Shown here: positions 1,684 to 64,000 of the stretch, one piece after another
Position numbering within the stretch: position 1 is the stretch's first letter
How the letters are laid out: each line of letters starts with the position of its first letter
Source of the DNA: Escherichia coli
GTDB lineage: Bacteria > Pseudomonadota > Gammaproteobacteria > Enterobacterales > Enterobacteriaceae
NCBI RefSeq assembly: GCF_003991155.1
Contig: NZ_CP031295.1
DNA: 64,000 bases
Direction: 5' to 3' (one strand)
Notes under the pieces: generated by a model
Database searches by the model: none
What the model was told of the DNA's origin: nothing
The model's input: only the letters and a program-made list of their open reading frames with translations
Position numbers and translations under genes: made by a program

Positions 1684-3885
1684 ATGATGATAAGCAAAAA
1701 GTATACGCTTTGGGCTCTCAACCCACTGCTTCTTACCATGATGGCGCCAGCAGTCGCTCAACAAACCGATGATGAAACGTTCGTGGTGTCTGCCAACCGC
1801 AGCAATCGCACCGTAGCGGAGATGGCGCAAACCACCTGGGTTATCGAAAACGCCGAACTGGAACAGCAGATTCAGGGCGGCAAAGAGCTTAAAGACGCAC
1901 TGGCTCAGCTGATCCCTGGCCTTGACGTCAGCAGCCGGAGCCGCACCAACTACGGTATGAATGTGCGTGGCCGCCCGCTGGTCGTGCTGGTTGACGGCGT
2001 GCGTCTCAACTCTTCACGTACCGACAGCCGACAACTGGACTCTATAGATCCTTTTAATATCGACCATATTGAAGTGATCTCCGGTGCGACGTCCCTGTAC
2101 GGCGGCGGCAGTACCGGTGGCCTGATCAACATCGTGACCAAAAAAGGCCAGCCGGAAACCATGATGGAGTTTGAGGCTGGCACCAAAAGTGGCTTTAGCA
2201 GCAGTAAAGATCACGATGAACGCATTGCCGGAGCTGTCTCCGGCGGAAATGAGCATATCTCCGGACGTCTTTCCGTGGCATATCAGAAATTTGGCGGCTG
2301 GTTTGACGGTAACGGCGATGCCACCTTGCTTGATAACACCCAGACCGGCCTGCAGTACTCCGATCGGCTGGACATCATGGGAACTGGTACGCTGAACATC
2401 GATGAATCCCGGCAGCTTCAGTTGATCACACAGTACTATAAAAGCCAGGGCGACGACGATTACGGGCTTAATCTCGGGAAAGGCTTCTCTGCCATCAGAG
2501 GGACCAGCACGCCATTCGTCAGTAACGGGCTGAATTCCGACCGTATTCCCGGCACTGAGCGGCATTTGATCAGCCTGCAGTACTCTGACAGCGCTTTTCT
2601 GGGACAGGAGCTGGTCGGTCAGGTTTACTACCGCGATGAGTCGTTGCGATTCTACCCGTTCCCGACGGTAAATGCGAACAAACAGGTGACGGCTTTCTCT
2701 TCGTCACAGCAGGACACCGACCAGTACGGCATGAAACTGACTCTGAACAGCAAACCGATGGACGGCTGGCAAATCACCTGGGGGCTGGATGCTGATCATG
2801 AGCGCTTTACCTCCAACCAGATGTTCTTCGACCTGGCTCAGGCAAGCGCTTCCGGAGGGCTGAACAACAAGAAGATTTACACCACCGGGCGCTATCCGTC
2901 GTATGACATCACCAACCTGGCGGTCTTCCTGCAATCAGGCTATGACATCAATAATCTCTTTACCCTCAACGGTGGCGTACGCTATCAGTACACTGAAAAC
3001 AAGATTGATGATTTCATCGGCTACGCGCAGCAACGGCAGATTGCCGCCGGGAAGGCTACATCCGCCGACGCCATTCCTGGCGGCTCAGTCGATTACGACA
3101 ACTTCCTGTTCAACGCCGGTCTGCTGATGCACATCACCGAACGCCAGCAGGCATGGCTCAACTTCTCCCAGGGCGTGGAGCTGCCGGACCCGGGTAAATA
3201 CTATGGTCGCGGCATCTATGGTGCTGCAGTGAACGGCCATCTTCCTCTAACAAAGAGTGTGAACGTCAGCGACAGCAAGCTGGAAGGCGTGAAAGTCGAT
3301 TCTTATGAGCTGGGCTGGCGCTTTACTGGCAATAATCTGCGTACCCAAATCGCGGCCTACTATTCGATTTCTGATAAGAGCGTGGTGGCGAATAAAGATC
3401 TGACCATCAGCGTGGTGGACGACAAACGCCGTATTTACGGCGTGGAAGGTGCGGTGGACTACCTGATTCCTGATACTGACTGGAGTACCGGAGTGAACTT
3501 CAACGTGCTGAAAACTGAGTCGAAAGTGAACGGTACCTGGCAGAAATACGATGTGAAGACAGCAAGCCCATCAAAAGCGACAGCCTACATTGGCTGGGCA
3601 CCGGACCCGTGGAGTCTGCGCGTGCAGAGCACCACCTCCTTTGACGTGAGCGACGCGCAGGGCTACAAGGTCGATGGCTATACCACCGTGGATCTGCTCG
3701 GCAGTTATCAGCTTCCGGTGGGTACACTCAGCTTCAGCATTGAAAACCTCTTCGACCGTGACTACACCACTGTCTGGGGGCAGCGTGCACCACTGTACTA
3801 CAGCCCGGGTTACGGCCCAGCGTCACTGTACGACTACAAAGGCAGGGGCCGAACCTTTGGTCTGAACTACTCTGTGCTGTTCTGA
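1684..3885 (+). CDS. iutA: ferric aerobactin outer-membrane receptor IutA (TonB-dependent)
   Basis: 733 aa ORF; signal peptide, TonB box ETFVVSA near N-terminus, C-terminal aromatic residue; RBS GGAGG upstream. Confidence 0.9.
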   Translation: MMISKKYTLWALNPLLLTMMAPAVAQQTDDETFVVSANRSNRTVAEMAQTTWVIENAELEQQIQGGKELKDALAQLIPGLDVSSRSRTNYGMNVRGRPLVVLVDGVRLNSSRTDSRQLDSIDPFNIDHIEVISGATSLYGGGSTGGLINIVTKKGQPETMMEFEAGTKSGFSSSKDHDERIAGAVSGGNEHISGRLSVAYQKFGGWFDGNGDATLLDNTQTGLQYSDRLDIMGTGTLNIDESRQLQLITQYYKSQGDDDYGLNLGKGFSAIRGTSTPFVSNGLNSDRIPGTERHLISLQYSDSAFLGQELVGQVYYRDESLRFYPFPTVNANKQVTAFSSSQQDTDQYGMKLTLNSKPMDGWQITWGLDADHERFTSNQMFFDLAQASASGGLNNKKIYTTGRYPSYDITNLAVFLQSGYDINNLFTLNGGVRYQYTENKIDDFIGYAQQRQIAAGKATSADAIPGGSVDYDNFLFNAGLLMHITERQQAWLNFSQGVELPDPGKYYGRGIYGAAVNGHLPLTKSVNVSDSKLEGVKVDSYELGWRFTGNNLRTQIAAYYSISDKSVVANKDLTISVVDDKRRIYGVEGAVDYLIPDTDWSTGVNFNVLKTESKVNGTWQKYDVKTASPSKATAYIGWAPDPWSLRVQSTTSFDVSDAQGYKVDGYTTVDLLGSYQLPVGTLSFSIENLFDRDYTTVWGQRAPLYYSPGYGPASLYDYKGRGRTFGLNYSVLF

Positions 3886-5357: not shown

Positions 5358-6533
5358 ATGTTCAGAATGAGACTCATGGAAACACTTAACCAGTGCATAA
5401 ACGCTGGTCATGAAATGACGAAGGCTATCGCCATTGCACAGTTTAATGATGACAGCCCGGAAGCGAGGAAAATCACCCGACGCTGGAGAATAGGTGAAGC
5501 AGCGGATTTAGTTGGAGTATCTTCTCAGGCTATCAGGGATGCCGAGAAAGCAGGCCGGCTACCGCACCCGGATATGGAAATACGAGGACGGGTTGAGCAA
5601 CGTGTTGGTTATACAATTGAACAAATTAATCATATGCGTGACGTGTTTGGTACGAGACTACGACGTGCTGAAGACGTATTTCCGCCGGTGATTGGAGTTG
5701 CTGCTCATAAAGGGGGCGTTTACAAAACCTCTGTTTCTGTTCATCTTGCTCAGGATCTGGCTCTGAAGGGATTACGTGTTCTGCTCGTGGAAGGTAACGA
5801 CCCCCAGGGAACAGCATCGATGTATCACGGCTGGGTGCCAGATCTTCATATTCATGCAGAGGATACTCTCCTTCCCTTCTATCTTGGGGAAAAGGACGAT
5901 GTCACTTATGCAATAAAGCCTACTTGCTGGCCTGGGCTTGACATTATTCCTTCCTGTTTGGCTCTGCACCGCATTGAAACTGAGCTAATGGGCAAATTTG
6001 ATGAAGGTAAATTGCCCACCGATCCACACCTGATGCTCCGACTGGCCATTGAAACCGTCGCTCATGACTATGATGTCATTGTCATTGACAGCGCGCCTAA
6101 CCTAGGTATCGGCACGATTAATGTTGTATGTGCTGCTGATGTGTTGATTGTCCCCACGCCTGCTGAGTTGTTCGACTACACTTCCGCTCTGCAGTTTTTC
6201 GATATGCTTCGTGATCTGCTCAAAAACGTAGATCTTAAAGGATTCGAGCCTGATGTACGTATTTTGCTTACCAAATACAGTAATAGTAATGGTTCTCAGT
6301 CCCCGTGGATGGAGGAGCAAATTCGGGACGCCTGGGGAAGCATGGTCCTAAAAAATGTTGTGCGTGAAACGGATGAAGTTGGTAAAGGTCAGATCCGGAT
6401 GAGAACTGTTTTTGAACAGGCTATTGATCAACGCTCTTCAACAGGTGCCTGGAGAAATGCCCTTTCTATTTGGGAACCTGTCTGCAATGAAATTTTCGAT
6501 CGTTTGATTAAACCACGCTGGGAGATTAGATAA
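5358..6533 (+). CDS. sopA: plasmid partition ATPase SopA (ParA family, F type)
   Basis: 391 aa ORF; deviant Walker A KGGVYKTS; matches F SopA as I remember it. Confidence 0.95.
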
Positions 6534-7504
6534 TGAAGCGTGCGCCTGTCATTCCAAAACATACGATTAAGACTCAACCGCTTGAAGATACTCCGTCATC
6601 GGCACCAGCTGCACCGATGGTGGATTCGTTAATTGCGCGCGTAGGAGCTATGGCTCGTGGCAATGCTATTACTTTGCCTGTATGTGGTAGGGACGTGAAA
6701 TTTACCCTTGAGGTGCTCCGGGGAGATAGTGTTGAGAAGACCTCTCGGGTATGGTCAGGTAATGAACGTGACCAGGAACTGCTTACCGAAGACGCCCTGG
6801 ATGATCTTATCCCTTCTTTTCTACTGACAGGTCAGCAGACACCAGCATTCGGTCGAAGAGTGTCTGGGGTCATAGAAATTGCCGATGGGAGCCGCCGTCG
6901 TAAAGCTGCTGCACTTACAGAAAGTGATTATCGAGTTCTGGTTGGTGAGCTGGATGATGAGCAGATGGCTGCATTGTCCAGATTGGGTAACGATTATAGG
7001 CCAACAAGTGCTTATGAACGTGGTCAGCGTTATGCAAGCCGATTGCAGAATGAATTTGCTGGAAATATTTCTGCGCTGGCTGATGCAGAAAATATTTCAC
7101 GTAAGATTATTACCCGCTGTATCAACACAGCTAAACTGCCTAAATCAGTTGTTGCTCTTTTTTCTCATCCCGGTGAACTATCTGCCCGGTCAGGTGATGC
7201 ACTTCAAAGAGCTTTTACAGATAAAGAAGAATTACTTAAGCAGCAGGCATCTAACCTTCACGAGCAGAAAAAAGCAGGAGTGATATTTGAAGCTGAAGAA
7301 GTCATCACTCTTTTAACGTCTGTGCTTAAAACGTCATCTGCCTCAAGAACTAGCTTAAGCTCACGACATCAGTTTGCTCCTGGAGCGACAGTGTTGTACA
7401 AGGGCGATAAAATGGTGTTAAACCTAGATAGATCTCGTATTCCAACTGAGTGTATAGAGAGAATTGAAGCCATTCTTAAGGAACTTGAAAAAGCGGCACT
7501 TTGA
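6533..7504 (+). CDS. sopB: plasmid partition protein SopB (ParB family, F type)
   Basis: 323 aa ORF overlapping the sopA stop; matches F SopB; followed by sopC repeats. Confidence 0.95.
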
Positions 7505-8883: not shown

Positions 8884-9423
8884 ATGGCAGTTCGTGGCAT
8901 TAACAAGGTCATTCTCGTAGGACGCCTGGGAAAAGATCCGGAAGTCCGTTACATCCCCAACGGGGGCGCAGTGGCAAACCTGCAGGTGGCCACATCAGAA
9001 AGCTGGCGTGACAAACAGACGGGGGAGATGCGGGAGCAGACAGAATGGCATCGTGTGGTGCTGTTCGGCAAGCTCGCGGAAGTGGCAGGTGAATATCTGC
9101 GCAAGGGCGCGCAGGTCTACATCGAAGGTCAGCTTCGCACCCGTAGCTGGGAGGATAACGGTATCACCCGTTACGTCACCGAAATTCTTGTTAAGACCAC
9201 GGGCACCATGCAGATGCTGGGACGTGCCGCAGGTGCTCAGACTCAGCCGGAAGAGGGGCAACAGTTCAGCGGTCAGTATCAGCCGGAACCACAGGCGGAG
9301 GCCGGTACGAAAAAAGGAGGCGCAAAAACGAAAGGCCGTGGACGTAAGGCCACGCAGCCGGAGTCGCAGCCGCAACCGCCGGAGAGTGACGATTACGGGT
9401 TTTCAGATGATATCCCGTTCTGA
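8884..9423 (+). CDS. ssb: plasmid single-stranded DNA-binding protein
   Basis: 179 aa from MAVRGINKV; OB-fold N-terminal region, Gly/Gln/Pro-rich linker, acidic C-terminus DDIPF; RBS AGGAGG. Confidence 0.9.
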
Positions 9424-57248: not shown

Positions 57249-58068
57249 GGCACTGTTGCAAATAGTCGGTGGTGATAAACTTATCATCCCCTTTTGCTGA
57301 TGGAGCTGCACATGAACCCATTCAAAGGCCGGCATTTTCAGCGTGACATCATTCTGTGGGCCGTACGCTGGTACTGCAAATACGGCATCAGTTACCGTGA
57401 GCTGCAGGAGATGCTGGCTGAACGCGGAGTGAATGTCGATCACTCCACGATTTACCGCTGGGTTCAGCGTTATGCGCCTGAAATGGAAAAACGGCTGCGC
57501 TGGTACTGGCGTAACCCTTCCGATCTTTGCCCGTGGCACATGGATGAAACCTACGTGAAGGTCAATGGCCGCTGGGCGTATCTGTACCGGGCCGTCGACA
57601 GCCGGGGCCGCACTGTCGATTTTTATCTCTCCTCCCGTCGTAACAGCAAAGCTGCATACCGGTTTCTGGGTAAAATCCTCAACAACGTGAAGAAGTGGCA
57701 GATCCCGCGATTCATCAACACGGATAAAGCGCCCGCCTATGGTCGCGCGCTTGCTCTGCTCAAACGCGAAGGCCGGTGCCCGTCTGACGTTGAACACCGA
57801 CAGATTAAGTACCGGAACAACGTGATTGAATGCGATCATGGCAAACTGAAACGGATAATCGGCGCCACGCTGGGATTTAAATCCATGAAGACGGCTTACG
57901 CCACCATCAAAGGTATTGAGGTGATGCGTGCACTACGCAAAGGCCAGGCCTCAGCATTTTATTATGGTGATCCCCTGGGCGAAATGCGCCTGGTAAGCAG
58001 AGTTTTTGAAATGTAAGGCCTTTGAATAAGACAAAAGGCTGCCTCATCGCTAACTTTGCAACAGTGCC
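57249..58068 (+). mobile_element. IS26 (820 bp)
   Basis: 14-bp terminal IRs GGCACTGTTGCAAA at 57249-57262 and TTTGCAACAGTGCC at 58055-58068. Confidence 0.9.
57312..58016 (+). CDS. tnpA: IS26 transposase
   Basis: 234 aa from [21 protein letters not shown]... Confidence 0.9.
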
Positions 58069-58090: not shown

Positions 58091-58477
58091 ATGAATAAAC
58101 CAGCAGATCTGAAACCCCGCAACTTATCGGCTGCTGTCAGATTGCGCCTAAATGAAATCGAGAACTGGCTGGACAGAGGGCTAACGCGGCATGAAATTGC
58201 TGAAATCCTCGACAGCGAATACAGCTTTTCGGTAACAGCCAAAGGGCTTGAGATGGCACTGTATAGAACGCGGCAAAACCGAAAAAATGTATTGCACAAT
58301 ACGCATGATAAGAGTAGCGCGAAGGGTGCAGCGGAAAGTGTATTGCACAATACACAACCGTCTGAGCCTGAAGTGCAGGAAAGTAAAAAAGCAGAGAGTC
58401 CCGGCATTATTGATAAAGAATTCTTCAAGAAAATCGGTGAGAATTTCGACCCTAAGAAGTTCAACAAAAAATTCTGA
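58091..58477 (+). CDS. hypothetical protein (128 aa) with possible N-terminal helix-turn-helix
   Basis: first ATG outside IS26 (MNKPADLKPRNL...); segment RGLTRHEIAEIL resembles an HTH; contains two copies of the near-palindrome TGTATTGCACAATAC (about 58279 and 58332); family not recognised. Confidence 0.4.
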   Translation: MNKPADLKPRNLSAAVRLRLNEIENWLDRGLTRHEIAEILDSEYSFSVTAKGLEMALYRTRQNRKNVLHNTHDKSSAKGAAESVLHNTQPSEPEVQESKKAESPGIIDKEFFKKIGENFDPKKFNKKF

Positions 58478-58560: not shown

Positions 58561-59617
58561 GGCTTTGTTGAATAAATCAGATTTCGGGTAAGTCTCCCCC
58601 GTAGCGGGTTGTGTTTTCAGGCAATACGCACGCTTTCAGGCATACCTGCTTTCGTCATTTTGTTCAGCGCTCGTACCAGGGCCATAGCCTCTGCAACCTG
58701 ACCATCGTAGTCACGCAGTATCAGTGAACCTCCGAACAGCTGTTTTACCCGGTACATCGCCGTTTCCGCTATCGAGCGACGGTTGTAATCTGTTGTCCAT
58801 TTCCACCGCGCATTACTCCCGGTCAGCCGCTGATTCGCAACAGCACGGTTACGGTCTGCATATTCACCGGGCCAGTAACCCGCGCCTTTTCGGGGCGGGA
58901 TAAGCGCGCTGATTTTCTTACGCCGCAGTTCATCGTGACAGAGTTGGGTGTCGTAAGCGCCGTCTGCCGATGCTGCCCTGATTTTTCTGTGAGTCTGCCG
59001 GATAAGACCCGGGAAGGCTTCTGAGTCCGTCACATTGTTCAGCGACAGGTTTGCACAGATGATTTCATGTGTGTTGCTGTCAACTGCCAGATGCAACTTT
59101 CGCCATATACGACGGCGTTCCTGGCCATGCTTTTTGACTTTCCATTCGCCTTCACCAAAGACCTTCAGCCCGGTGGAATCAATCACCAGATGCGCGATTT
59201 CACCCCGGGTGAACGTTTTGAAACTGACATTAACCGACTTTGCGCGCCTGCTGACACTGGTGTAATCCGGGCAGCGCAACGGAACATTCATCAGTGTAAA
59301 AATGGAATCAATAAAACCCTGTGCAGCCCGCAGGGTCAACCTGAACACGCGTTTAATGACCAGAACGGTGGTGATGGCGAGATCAGAATAGCGCTGAGGT
59401 CTTCCCCGTGATGAAGGCGTTGCCGACTCATACCAGGCCTGAATAGCTTCATCATCCAGCCAGAAAGTTATGGAGCCACGGTTGATGAGGGCTTTATTGT
59501 AGGTGGGCCAGTTGGTTATTTTGAACTTTTGCTTTGCCACGGAACGGTCTGCGTTGTCGGGAAGATGCGTGATCTGATCCTTCAACTCAGCAAAAGTTCG
59601 ATTTATTCAACAAAGCC
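58561..59617 (-). mobile_element. IS903-like insertion sequence (IS5 family, 1057 bp)
   Basis: 18-bp terminal IRs GGCTTTGTTGAATAAATC at 58561-58578 and inverted at 59600-59617; flanking 9 bp differ. Confidence 0.8.
58617..59585 (-). CDS. IS903-like transposase (DDE)
   Basis: 322 aa ORF filling the element; recognised as the IS903/IS102 transposase family from memory; true start may be an internal Met. Confidence 0.8.
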   Translation of the reverse strand: MKDQITHLPDNADRSVAKQKFKITNWPTYNKALINRGSITFWLDDEAIQAWYESATPSSRGRPQRYSDLAITTVLVIKRVFRLTLRAAQGFIDSIFTLMNVPLRCPDYTSVSRRAKSVNVSFKTFTRGEIAHLVIDSTGLKVFGEGEWKVKKHGQERRRIWRKLHLAVDSNTHEIICANLSLNNVTDSEAFPGLIRQTHRKIRAASADGAYDTQLCHDELRRKKISALIPPRKGAGYWPGEYADRNRAVANQRLTGSNARWKWTTDYNRRSIAETAMYRVKQLFGGSLILRDYDGQVAEAMALVRALNKMTKAGMPESVRIA

Positions 59618-59989: not shown

Positions 59990-60735
59990 GCGCCGTACTG
60001 CGCGTTAGCGGCCGCACGCGGCCGGTTAACCGTATTGCACGCAAGCTAAATGTGCTGGGCATAAAAACCGCGCTCGATCTGGCTCTGACGAACCCGGCCT
60101 TCATCCGCAAAAATTTTTCTGTCGTCCTTGAGCGAACGGTACGGGAACTGAACGGGGAAAGCTGCCTTTCGCTTGAGGAAGCCCCTCCGACGAAACAGCA
60201 AATTGTCTGCAGCCGCAGTTTTGGCGTGAAGATCACGGAGTACGAGTCACTCCGTCAGGCTATCTGTCAGCACGCAGAGCGGGCCTCTGAAAAACTGCGT
60301 AAAGAGCACCAGTATTGCCGGCATATTTCCGTTTTCATCAAAACGTCTCCGTTCGCCATTAAAGAGCCTTACTACGGCAACGTGGCTACGGAAAAACTTC
60401 TTACACCCACTCAGGACACCAGGGACATCATTGCAGCCGCTACAACGGCTCTGGAGCGTATCTGGAGGGATGGGCACCGGTATGCCAAAGCCGGAGTTAT
60501 GCTGAATGACTTCACCGGCTCCGGAGTTTCGCAGCTGCAACTGTTCGACGAACGCCCGCCACGCCCTCACAGTGCTGAGCTGATGAGGGTTCTGGACGGG
60601 ATCAACAACTCAGGGCTGGGTAAAGTATGGTTTGCGGGGCGGGGTATGGCCCCGGAATGGCAGATGAAACGGGAGATGCTTTCTCCTGCTTATACGACAC
60701 GATGGTCAGATATTCCTGCAGCGAAACTGGCGTGA
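59990..60735 (+). pseudogene. umuC: umuC-like (Y-family DNA polymerase V catalytic subunit), C-terminal fragment
   Basis: translation ...NRIARKLNVLGIKTALDLALTNPAFIRKNFSVVLERTVRELNGESCLSLEE...LSPAYTTRWSDIPAAKLA aligns with the C-terminal half of UmuC/MucB; no N-terminal half and no umuD upstream. Confidence 0.7.
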
Positions 60736-60739
60736 AACT

Positions 60740-60816
60740 ATGGCGATTTCACCGTGAAATTCTCAACCTAAACTGCCTAATTACAATAAGTTAGATGTGA
60801 AATCGCCATGGCGAAA
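60740..60816. repeat. parS: putative P1-type parS centromere
   Basis: immediately downstream of parB; heptamer ATTTCAC/GTGAAAT and hexamer TCGCCA/TGGCGA boxes around an AT-rich core. Confidence 0.5.
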
Positions 60817-61791
60817 TTATTGACTCAAATTTCTGTCAAGGACTTCGTTGATAGCCTTGTCCAGTTCATCCTGAATCACTTTTGACATACGGCTAAACTC
60901 ATAAGTCAGCGTGCGCCCTTTCACACGCTTACGCGCGAACTTGTCCTTTTCTTCAAAAGACCAGAGTGGGGAAACCACTGACTTTTCCTTGGGAGATGGA
61001 TCTATCAATGCCTGAGATGCCTGAGAAATCAGCTTCAGAATACTGGCTTTCTGTTCGTCTTCTGGTCGCTCGCCATCACTCAAAATTGCATCGAGCTGAG
61101 CTGATACAGACTGAATGAGTTCTTCAGGCGTTAATCCCTTTTCACCGAGTTTTTCATTAACTTCTAAAAGAAGTTTATAATCACTAAACGATAGCTCCGA
61201 CTGAACCGGGAACAGAGAAATTAAGTCTTGCGGTACGGCCGCCGCCTGCAGCGCCCTGGTAACTTTAGCCTGAGATAATCCCTCCAGTTCAGCAATTTCC
61301 TTTTGATTAAATCCGGACTCTTTAAGAGCGATCAATCTCAGACCAATCTCCCGAAGATTATGTTCTTTAGCTGTCTGGATATCTTTAGCCAGTTGGCGAG
61401 CTTCATCAGCTGATAAATGTTCTTCGGTAACCATTACATCAAGGCCTGTACGGACAAAAATTGCTGAGGCTCGCCGTCTTGAACCATCCAGTATCTCAAT
61501 CCTTTCACTTTGCTTAATACCAATACAGGGAAAGAACTGCTGAAACTTAATCGTCTGGATAATGGATTTCAGAGACTCCCTGGTCAGTGCAAGTTGATCT
61601 CTTCCATTGTTTTCCTGGTTTACGAAGGTCTTACTTTCAACTTCAGATGCAGGCACCCGAACAAACCTGAACGTTACCTTCCTGCCGGTTTTTAAGGTAA
61701 ATACCTGACTTCTACCGGTGTCAGCCATTTCGAGCATTGACGCCTGAGTATTTAACTGTCTGCCGATGGTTTTTCTTTTCTCATTCGACAT
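60817..61791 (-). CDS. parB: ParB partition protein (P1/P7 type)
   Basis: starts MSNEKRKTIGRQLN...; HTH region ...GLSQAKVTRALQAA...; start overlaps the parA stop. Confidence 0.85.
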   Translation of the reverse strand: MSNEKRKTIGRQLNTQASMLEMADTGRSQVFTLKTGRKVTFRFVRVPASEVESKTFVNQENNGRDQLALTRESLKSIIQTIKFQQFFPCIGIKQSERIEILDGSRRRASAIFVRTGLDVMVTEEHLSADEARQLAKDIQTAKEHNLREIGLRLIALKESGFNQKEIAELEGLSQAKVTRALQAAAVPQDLISLFPVQSELSFSDYKLLLEVNEKLGEKGLTPEELIQSVSAQLDAILSDGERPEDEQKASILKLISQASQALIDPSPKEKSVVSPLWSFEEKDKFARKRVKGRTLTYEFSRMSKVIQDELDKAINEVLDRNLSQ

Positions 61792-62996
61792 CACATACCT
61801 CCGTTAGTACGAATGAACTCGATGCGATCAAAGACTGCCTTCGCAAAGTCTTCCGCTGCTGATTTTGCGCTTTTTAGTGCCTCTGTACTTCCATCATAGG
61901 TTGCTGGATTTGCTGAAATAACTGTGTCAAAAGTCTCCCCACAACGTTCGAAACCATCCAGTCTTGGCAGAACCATGTCTAGCATATCGGCACCGAAAAC
62001 CTCTTTGGCCTGACTATGGCAAATTTTGTGATCAGACTTGTTCAGGATCTTGGACATGAAGCCGACATTACCGATGAGATTGCAGGTGTGCCCATCCATT
62101 TCGATGGAATCTATGAGGGCAGGGAGGCTGGCCACAAACTTCAGGGAAGAATGAAAATCAACCGTCGCCGGTGGAAGAGGGGTCAACATCAGGTCTGCCG
62201 CCCCAATGCAGTTTTTCAGGAACGCATCAAGGTGAGGACCACTATCAAGGAAAATAAAGTCGTAGTCATGCTGGAGCTTGTCGATAATGTTCTCTTTAAG
62301 CACCGCATGAATATTTTTCCCTGGCAGATGTTCTTCACACAATCCCTTCCAGCCTTCAGCAAGGAATGCATCGTCAATGGAAGCGGGGATTACATCAACA
62401 CCAGGGATAATAGACGGTACTATAAAATCGGAAAGTAATTCTTCACGAGACACGTTCTGGAGCATGGCCTGAGCAGCCGTATTTTCAACCAAGCCCACTG
62501 AATTCTCATGGCTCAGGAACATTGTCAGAGATGCCTGCGGATCGAAATCGATGGCCAGAATACGCAGGTCTTCGAACAGAAGCTGAGGATGAGCTCGAAA
62601 AGCATGTGATAATGAAGCGGTAGAAACTGTCTTGGAACCACCACCTTTAAGATTACATACAAAAATCGTAAAGGCTTTATCGAAGCGATCCCTGTACTTC
62701 GGTACTTTACGATGGTTATACAGATCGATGACATTCTGAATCGTCATCGCGTATTTCATCGTATTACCAGAAGGTTTCTTTTTAAAAATGTAGCCACCGG
62801 CTTCCATTTCGGACACAGCATACTCAACACTGCCTTTACTGAGCTTAGGCAGCTTATACAGAGCGGCTTTGCTGTATTCCTGATAGAACTCGGTAAGCTT
62901 CAATTCCTCTTTTTGCTGTCGGATACTTTCGCTCAAAGATGTCAGAAGCTTACCTGCACGTGTAGCGACTTTCCGTAACTGCTCAATATTGTCCAT
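61791..62996 (-). CDS. parA: ParA partition ATPase (P1/P7 type, type Ia with N-terminal regulatory domain)
   Basis: 401 aa; deviant Walker A CNLKGGGSKTVST; ~100-aa N-terminal extension typical of autoregulating type Ia ParA. Confidence 0.9.
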   Translation of the reverse strand: MDNIEQLRKVATRAGKLLTSLSESIRQQKEELKLTEFYQEYSKAALYKLPKLSKGSVEYAVSEMEAGGYIFKKKPSGNTMKYAMTIQNVIDLYNHRKVPKYRDRFDKAFTIFVCNLKGGGSKTVSTASLSHAFRAHPQLLFEDLRILAIDFDPQASLTMFLSHENSVGLVENTAAQAMLQNVSREELLSDFIVPSIIPGVDVIPASIDDAFLAEGWKGLCEEHLPGKNIHAVLKENIIDKLQHDYDFIFLDSGPHLDAFLKNCIGAADLMLTPLPPATVDFHSSLKFVASLPALIDSIEMDGHTCNLIGNVGFMSKILNKSDHKICHSQAKEVFGADMLDMVLPRLDGFERCGETFDTVISANPATYDGSTEALKSAKSAAEDFAKAVFDRIEFIRTNGGM

Positions 62997-63060
62997 TTAT
63001 CACCTCATGACGTTTTTTGTCATTTTGAACAAAAAGTGTCATGTTGCAAGAAAAAAATCA
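62997..63060 (-). promoter_or_regulatory. putative parA promoter/operator
   Basis: AT-rich region with inverted repeats (tgacgttttttgtca, gtgtcatg) directly upstream of parA. Confidence 0.4.
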
Positions 63061-63391
63061 TATTGTTTTGATTTCGCTCTCAACAGAAGGGGGATGAAGC
63101 TCGACGGGCGTGCTACTAAATCACACTGCAGCAACACGCAGACGCACTTTTGACCATCAACAGCAACTCATACAAAAGGGCTTTGAGAAAGGTATTCAAC
63201 TTGCAAGACAGGAGAGTCATTCAGAAGGATTCTGATTTTAGTTACGACCAGTGCAATGCTGAGCCTTATGTATCAGCGCTCGCCGCAGCCATGTAACCGA
63301 GCGTAGCGAGCGAACTGGCGAGGAAGCGAAGAGGAACCGTTCCGGCAGATAGCTCTTACGCTCAGCACAAGAAGAGTTTTCCATCCTCTGT

Positions 63392-63955
63392 GGGAAACAG
63401 GTCAACTTTAATGGACGCTCCGGACTATGGGAAACAGGTCAACTTCGCGGACGGCCCGGACTATGGGAAACAGGTCAACTTCACGGGCGGCCGGGAGTGT
63501 GGGGAACAGGTCAACTTCGCGGACGGCCCGGACTATGGGAAACAGGTCAACTTCGCGGGCGGCCGGGACTGTGGGAAACAGGTCAACTTTGCAGACGGCC
63601 CGGACTGTGGGAAACAGGTCAACTTCGCGGGCGGCCGGGAGTGTGGGGAACAGGTCAACTTCGCGGACGGCCCGGACTAAGGGAAACAGGTCAGCTTCTC
63701 GGACGGCCCGGACTATGGGAAACAGGTCAACTTCTCGGACGGTCGGGAGTGTGGGAAACAGGTCAACTCCGCGTACGGCCCGGACTGTGGGAAACAGGTC
63801 AACTTTGCAGACGGCCGGGACTGTGGGAAACAGGTCAACTTTGCAGACGACCGGGACTGTGGGAAACAGGTCAACTACGCAGACAGCCGCGATTGCGGGA
63901 AACAGGTCAAGTTAGGCAAGCACTATGGGAAACACAGCAAGTTCAGTATCCCCCC
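63392..63955. repeat. tandem array of about 15 iteron-like direct repeats (period 35-37 bp)
   Basis: core GGGAAACAGGTCAACTT every 35-37 bp with a variable GC-rich spacer; the six-frame ORFs across it are 12-residue peptide repeats, i.e. translation artefacts. Confidence 0.85.
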
Positions 63956-64000
63956 ATATGTCAGCAACAAACTAAGGGGGGAGGAAATAAAAATTACAGA

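Follow-up and report, generated by a model that had tools for sequence, protein, structure and literature searches.

In plasmids with an initiator of the Rep_3 family, such as F, pPS10 and R6K, the direct iterons of the origin bind initiator monomers, and an inverted pair of sites at the rep promoter binds dimers. P1 incA consists of nine 19-bp iterons located between repA and parA, and F incC is a set of iterons between repE and sopA. Both exert negative control of the copy number and determine incompatibility. In the IncN plasmid pCU1, deletion of the 37-bp repeats reportedly raised the copy number. These repeats are given as a RepA-binding site in the passage of PMC9412624 that cites Papp & Iyer (1995). 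IncR replicons are common in the multidrug-resistant plasmids of Klebsiella and E. coli (~1500-2200 PLSDB records), where they frequently occur joined to an IncF or IncN replicon. PMC6353027 counts IncR as an iteron-regulated replicon, PMC9412624 describes 'repB and its iterons (36 bp, 10.4 copies)' in IncR, and PMC7707992 reports 10.5-22.5 copies, in IncR plasmids, of a 36-bp repeat identical to the one considered here. A search of the accessible literature gave no experiment on binding by the IncR RepB or on deletion of the IncR array. The functional division between the ori-proximal 22-bp repeats and the 36-bp array apparently has no IncR experiment behind it in that literature either.

The DNA analysed here, called the window, is a stretch of 64,000 nucleotides of the E. 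coli contig NZ_CP031295.1. An earlier note on this DNA had proposed, by analogy with the P1 arrangement repA-incA-parA-parB-parS, that a repeat array close to the window end belongs to the copy control of a second replicon. The order found on the minus strand is indeed ori – rep – array – parA – parB – parS, with a P1-type parS after parB.

The 36-bp array and its replicon

Tandem Repeats Finder detects one tandem array at positions 63388-63910, with a period of 36, 14.5 copies, 86% matches and a score of 715. When this result is combined with a core search and the register of the repeats, fifteen tandem 36-bp units are delineated at 63389-63913 on the plus strand. The 17-bp core GGGAAACAGGTCAACTT has 15 matches with at most one mismatch, all on the plus strand and extending from 63392 to 63913, and does not occur anywhere else in the 64-kb window. 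Shuffled sequences contain 0.11 matches on average, and none of 100 shuffles reached 15. The first core-to-core distance is 37 bp and the following thirteen are 36 bp, in agreement with the approximately 15 iteron-like repeats of about 36-bp period that had been noticed earlier. Each unit is composed of a conserved block of about 21 bp, TRTGGGAAACAGGTCAACTTC, and a 15-bp GC-rich spacer; the GC content of the spacers is 82% versus 46% in the core. The array had been seen to decay toward 63955, and this decay can now be described: a degenerate core copy, GGGAAACACAGCAAGTT, starts at 63927, just 30 bp past the 15th copy, and the degenerate 16th unit CTATGGGAAACACAGCAAGTT (63924-63944, plus strand) forms the rep-proximal end of the array, which fades out at about 63945. 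A scan of the window for TATGGG-N7-TCAAC with at most one mismatch gives 13 matches in the array, compared with 1.16 expected in total, and the single match outside the units is a stray one at 63941-63958 on the minus strand.

The spacers too are well conserved, though less so than the cores. In a pool of 100 units from eight sequences, namely six IncR plasmids, the IncR-like locus L006 and the window itself, the majority-base conservation is 0.93 for the core and 0.87 for the spacer. A CRISPR array was considered and rejected, the spacers being near-identical to each other with a few variants that recur (majority-base fraction 0.87). Unit 4 is identical to unit 8, and units 6, 12 and 13 are nearly identical to one another; a clear multi-unit, higher-order period was sought among the array units and not found. 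The recurrence of near-identical units is consistent with unequal crossing-over. For the region 62900-64000, a permissive Rfam scan gives no match, and a promoter and terminator scan finds nothing promoter-like and a single weak hairpin of the terminator type, which is no more than expected by chance.

The replicon type, which the earlier note had left uncertain, is IncR. In a megablast search of PLSDB, positions 62900-64000 match 2178 plasmids, mostly from Klebsiella. The top matches are IncR-typed and 99.9% identical, and they include pCP8-3-IncR, p663Rt_IncR and others assigned to IncR by MOB-suite, so that the replicon DNA of the window is near-identical to that of IncR-typed plasmids. In 1495 PLSDB plasmids, the array is joined without interruption to rep and the origin. 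Six sampled IncR plasmids contain 11, 11, 15, 16, 17 and 17 good cores in a 36-bp register throughout. Both 17-core arrays have one 71-bp gap each, which probably hides an 18th, degenerate unit. Judged by its sequence, the array is the iteron block of the IncR replicon, a known element that is routinely annotated, with nothing new in kind. As both the element and its type have been described before, no new biological question is raised by its presence.

The expectation of a second replicon is borne out, as an IncFII repA is present in the window too, together with tra genes. IncR is therefore the second replicon of an IncFII+IncR cointegrate. The IncR segment runs from 58069, where it adjoins an IS26, to the window end. 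The IS26 itself (57249-58068) is the left bound of the segment; stbA (~58091-58477) and then an IS903/IS5-family element (ORF 58617-59585) are found ahead of parB. The IncR backbone is here a truncated, IS-shuffled piece within an IncFII conjugative plasmid. Elsewhere in the window, an ORF at 1684-3885 encodes an iutA-like TonB-dependent receptor, as recognised by eye from the translation. A SopA/SopB-like pair is located at 5358-7504 with an IS1 fragment upstream in the place of repE/incC, and the plasmid therefore has two partition systems, this pair and the P1-type parAB. An F-type repE-incC-sopA module in the window was rejected: the sopA/sopB-like genes have the IS1 fragment upstream, and neither repE nor an iteron set accompanies them.

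The predicted initiator gene and origin beyond the window end

A rep gene had been predicted to lie just beyond the window. In all three of the relatives inspected (L001, L002 and L009, plasmids 99.9% identical to window 62900-64000), a gene annotated as 'replication initiation protein' begins on the minus strand at the equivalent of window position 64001. From these near-identical plasmids we infer that rep is also present in the source molecule, where the gene itself would lie past the window end. Positions 63945-64000 form the spacer between the array and the rep stop codon, and L001 8102-8968 (minus strand) adjoins the window end. The gene (RepB, with Rep3_N and Rep3_C domains) would thus occupy ~64001-64867, or ~64001-64723 if it starts at Met49. 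The initiator adjacent to the array belongs to the Rep_3 family: Pfam gives Rep3_N at 3.6e-31 and Rep3_C at 5.5e-13, the NCBIfam RepE model matches at 4.3e-41, and the F RepE structure (PDB 1rep) at E = 1.4e-33.

The IncR Rep of RefSeq has 288 residues, and the part of its gene before Met49 corresponds to L001 8825-8968, the equivalent of window ~64724-64867. These first 48 codons are probably not coding. The Rep starts of IncN, of L006 and of the relative L003 all align with the IncR Met49, and L006 has a stop codon inside the region that matches the extension. The extension also overlaps origin repeat 5, the DnaA-box palindromes (TTATCCAC-TT-GTGGATAA) and an operator-like inverted repeat.

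The anatomy of the origin was taken from L001, past the window end, and is described along the rep strand. Two tandem DnaA-box-like TTATCCAC sequences come first (L001 9156-9172) and are followed by an AT-rich block of about 34% GC, a short GC-rich stretch and five repeats spaced by exactly 22 bp (L001 9057-8948) with the consensus TATGGG-N7-T(C/A)A(A/C)(C/G). These five sites extend from upstream of the annotated rep start across it and are on the strand opposite to the array, all copies of which are inverted relative to the origin copies. The recognition motif is common to both sets. The fifth origin repeat, TATGGGAAAGAGGTCAAGTT, is alike to the array core in 18 of 20 positions, and the 36-bp unit can be read as a 22-bp iteron followed by 14 bp of GC-rich spacer. 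Origin repeats 1-4 of IncR are rather degenerate, only TATGGG and a TCAAC-like end being kept, which makes the argument from a shared motif weaker for IncR than for IncN. The GC content of the array is 58-66%, against 34% in the AT-rich block of the origin.

Just 5' of Met49, a TATGGGT/ACCCATA pair of inverted half-sites is found at L001 8834-8859. The pair is also present in L006 and L003, and IncN has CTTTGTGG/CCACAAAG at the equivalent place. With direct repeats at the origin and an inverted pair before Met49, the IncR layout is the classic Rep_3 arrangement.

An element of ~55 bp is present in two inverted copies that flank the ori-rep-array region, one at window 63276-63331 (minus strand) and the other at L001 ~9238-9287 (plus strand). 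Aligned with the pBR322/pUC sequence CTTCCTCGCTCACTGACTCGCTGCGCTCGGTCGTTCGGCTGCGGCGAGCG, the two copies score 51 and 49, compared with a shuffle maximum of 25. The ColE1 region which they resemble presumably holds a PriA (n') primosome assembly site. By this analogy, the flanking elements may be single-strand initiation sites.

Array, initiator and partition genes in related replicons

A parallel is provided by IncN. In a tblastn search with the IncR Rep, the IncN RepA is ~57% identical and F RepE ~32%. The IncN locus L004 follows the same plan: five 22-bp repeats TATGGGAATTGGCCCACCTTAC lie upstream of rep along with a DnaA box and an AT-rich block. Downstream of rep there is an inverted 37-bp array of 26.9 copies, the reverse complement of which carries TGTGGGAATCCGCCCACCTT. 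The array core agrees with the origin consensus of its own replicon in 16 of 20 positions in IncR and in 17 of 20 in IncN, versus 13 and 12 of 20, respectively, with the consensus of the other replicon. The half of the core that differs, GGTCAAC in IncR and GCCCACC in IncN, has undergone the same change in the origin repeats and in the array. This co-variation is the best evidence available that the cognate Rep would read both sets of sites. Two further loci added nothing to the comparison: in L007, an IncN-like replicon that has decayed, one origin repeat and remnants of the array are left, and L008 is a phage-plasmid-like replicon with a 31% identical Rep and 22-bp repeats only, the array being absent. 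The IncN 37-bp arrays vary in length, from 26.9 units in L004 (4262-5255) to 5.7 units, with an annotated IS4321 behind them, in L005 (4229-4439). Orphan IncN 37-bp iterons without a rep gene have been described in some IncR plasmids (PMC4048246, PMC9412624); the window contains none.

Other combinations of array and partition genes are also found. IncN has the array without parAB nearby. The IncR-like pJF-587 (Rep 94.8% identical by tblastn) has a 36-bp array of 13.6 copies beside an unrelated small ParA. L003 (CP057902.1 186460-194236; rep_cluster_2232), with a 64% identical Rep, has six 22-bp origin repeats and no long array, and its P1-type parAB is placed divergently. Taken together, the IncN, pJF-587 and L003 patterns indicate that the array tracks rep and not par. 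The array-less L003 suggests, though no more than that since the L003 plasmid carries other replicons, that the array is dispensable for a working origin of this type. A separate full origin, recognised at the sequence level by its DnaA boxes, AT-rich element and in-phase iterons, lies upstream of rep in all four replicons compared, i.e. IncR, the IncR-like one, IncN and the 64% identical relative.

In the window, the first gene downstream of the array is parA (61791-62996, minus strand), which codes for a partition ATPase of 401 aa and of the P1 type (type Ia), as had been noted. Its product matches PDB 3ez2 ('Plasmid partition protein A') over residues 3-398 with E = 1.9e-190, and we take this structure to be that of P1 ParA. 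The gene for the centromere-binding protein, parB, is at 60817-61794 on the minus strand (NCBIfam TIGR00180, 97.5 bits versus a cutoff of 58.45). Directly 3' of the parB stop codon, a P1-type parS candidate was read from the sequence at 60721-60816 (minus strand), with tttcgccatggcgatttcac … atttcacggtgaaatcgccatagtttcacgcc and the motifs TCGCCA and ATTTCAC flanking an AT-rich center. These motifs correspond to box B and box A, respectively, of P1 parS. The candidate would be the real centromere, distinct from the array. Window 63010-63060, which precedes the parA start, contains an inverted pair, TTTTTGT…ACAAAAA, as well as a direct repeat of 19 bp (TGTCATGTTGCAACAAAAAG-like), and it is likely the parA promoter/operator for ParA autoregulation.

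Genomics papers plainly call the 36-bp array 'the iterons' of repB, and its units are by far the best-conserved Rep-type sites in the replicon. Both points would fit an array that is itself the replication origin, built of essential iterons, and not a control element. Such a role is nevertheless unlikely, given the canonical origin that lies upstream of rep in all four replicons and the 64% identical relative that lacks any array. The GC-rich spacers, the absence of an adjoining AT-rich unwinding element or DnaA box, and the 36-bp spacing, which, in contrast to that of typical origin iterons, would turn adjacent sites to different helix faces, all favor a control element over an origin. The position of the array directly upstream of parA might instead point to a partition element that serves the P1-type par operon as a centromere for ParB or as a set of ParA operators. 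This can hardly be the case: the box A and box B motifs of the separate parS 3' of parB are not present in the array, about 390 bp lie between the array start and the parA start codon, and the array co-occurs with its Rep clade whatever the par neighbour and is missing where a related Rep is paired with P1-type parAB.

ORFs of 96 and 162 aa stay open across the array and are annotated in many records. RefSeq records also place an 89-aa 'hypothetical protein', WP_000339857.1, wholly within it, at the equivalent of window 63411-63680 (plus strand). It is very improbable that the region is a gene for such a repeat protein or, alternatively, a functionless satellite expansion. The profile search yields no family match for the ORFs, the number of units changes from 11 to 17 (18 with the degenerate one) across near-identical plasmids, and the 37-bp period of the homologous IncN array shifts the reading frame in every unit. 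The ORFs had already been dismissed as artefacts, and WP_000339857.1 is almost certainly a product of the 36-bp, i.e. 12-codon, period. A neutral satellite is unlikely too, since position, orientation and core co-variation are kept between replicons with Reps that are 57% identical.

Proposed function and comparison with known systems

By combining these observations, it is possible to propose a role for the array, to which we assign a probability of about 80%: it would be an auxiliary iteron set of the IncR replicon, consisting of RepB monomer sites, that limits the copy number and sets incompatibility. For IncR, Rep binding, negative copy control and handcuffing are all proposed by analogy, with P1 incA, F incC and IncN pCU1 serving as models for the copy control. 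Each 36-bp unit would contain one predicted RepB monomer site, TATGGG-N7-TCAAC, within its 21-bp core. Replication would start at the canonical origin across rep from the array, most likely not in the array, the GC-rich spacers of which would resist melting. The inverted pair of TATGGG half-sites at the rep promoter would function as an autorepression operator. The 15 extra sites may soak up Rep, leaving less free Rep for the origin (titration), and they may also take part in handcuffing, by pairing with the iterons of an origin in cis or on a sister plasmid. The outcome would be a low copy number, and the array would be a strong incompatibility determinant, as are P1 incA and F incC.

The conserved spacers and the strict 36-bp register are not needed for simple titration, and something beyond titration is possibly involved. 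The array spacing corresponds to ~3.4 helical turns, compared with ~2.1 for the 22-bp spacing of the origin repeats. The register, which would place neighbouring Reps on different faces of the helix, together with the constant inverted orientation and the conservation of the GC-rich spacers, leads to a tentative and rather doubtful extension of the proposal. The 36/37-bp arrays of IncR and IncN might form a specialised Rep-DNA scaffold, either a platform for handcuffing or an insulating barrier between rep and parA transcription, and expansion and contraction between ~10 and 27 units might tune copy number and compatibility in fusions. Should this be true, the unit number would tune IncR in its fused state, for example in the present IncFII+IncR cointegrate.

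For annotators, recognition of the array has practical consequences. The array marks a second replicon at the window edge and is a likely determinant of incompatibility and copy number, and the 'hypothetical protein' that it bears is spurious.

The locus shares with P1 and F the order of origin iterons, rep, extra iterons, parA, parB and centromere. The types of ParA and parS are P1-like, and the Rep is F-like, being ~32% identical to RepE. The IncR units differ from the iterons of P1 incA and F incC in their length (36 bp versus ~19-22 bp), and they are far more numerous and regular, in one orientation and with conserved GC-rich spacers. The earlier note had not recognised the repeat as the P1 iteron, and rightly so: the Rep is of the RepE/Rep_3 family and the replicon is IncR. 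Identity with P1 incA was rejected on account of the RepE/Rep_3-type initiator and the 36-bp unit, the likeness to P1 being confined to the par genes and the gene order. A megablast search of a phage collection gives no match, so that at the DNA level the region does not derive from a P1-like phage-plasmid.

IncN (pCU1/R46-type) and IncR have homologous Reps (~57%), five 22-bp origin repeats, then rep, and an inverted 36/37-bp array with GC-rich spacers. They differ in the period (37 bp in IncN versus 36 bp), in the core (GCCCACC versus GGTCAAC) and in the spacers, and IncN has no adjacent parAB. The 'repB iterons' of IncR plasmids of the pK245/pHN84KPC type consist of the same 36-bp unit in the same place between repB and parA. 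From these published IncR arrays, the present one does not differ in substance, as its 15 good units and one degenerate unit fall within the range of 10-22.
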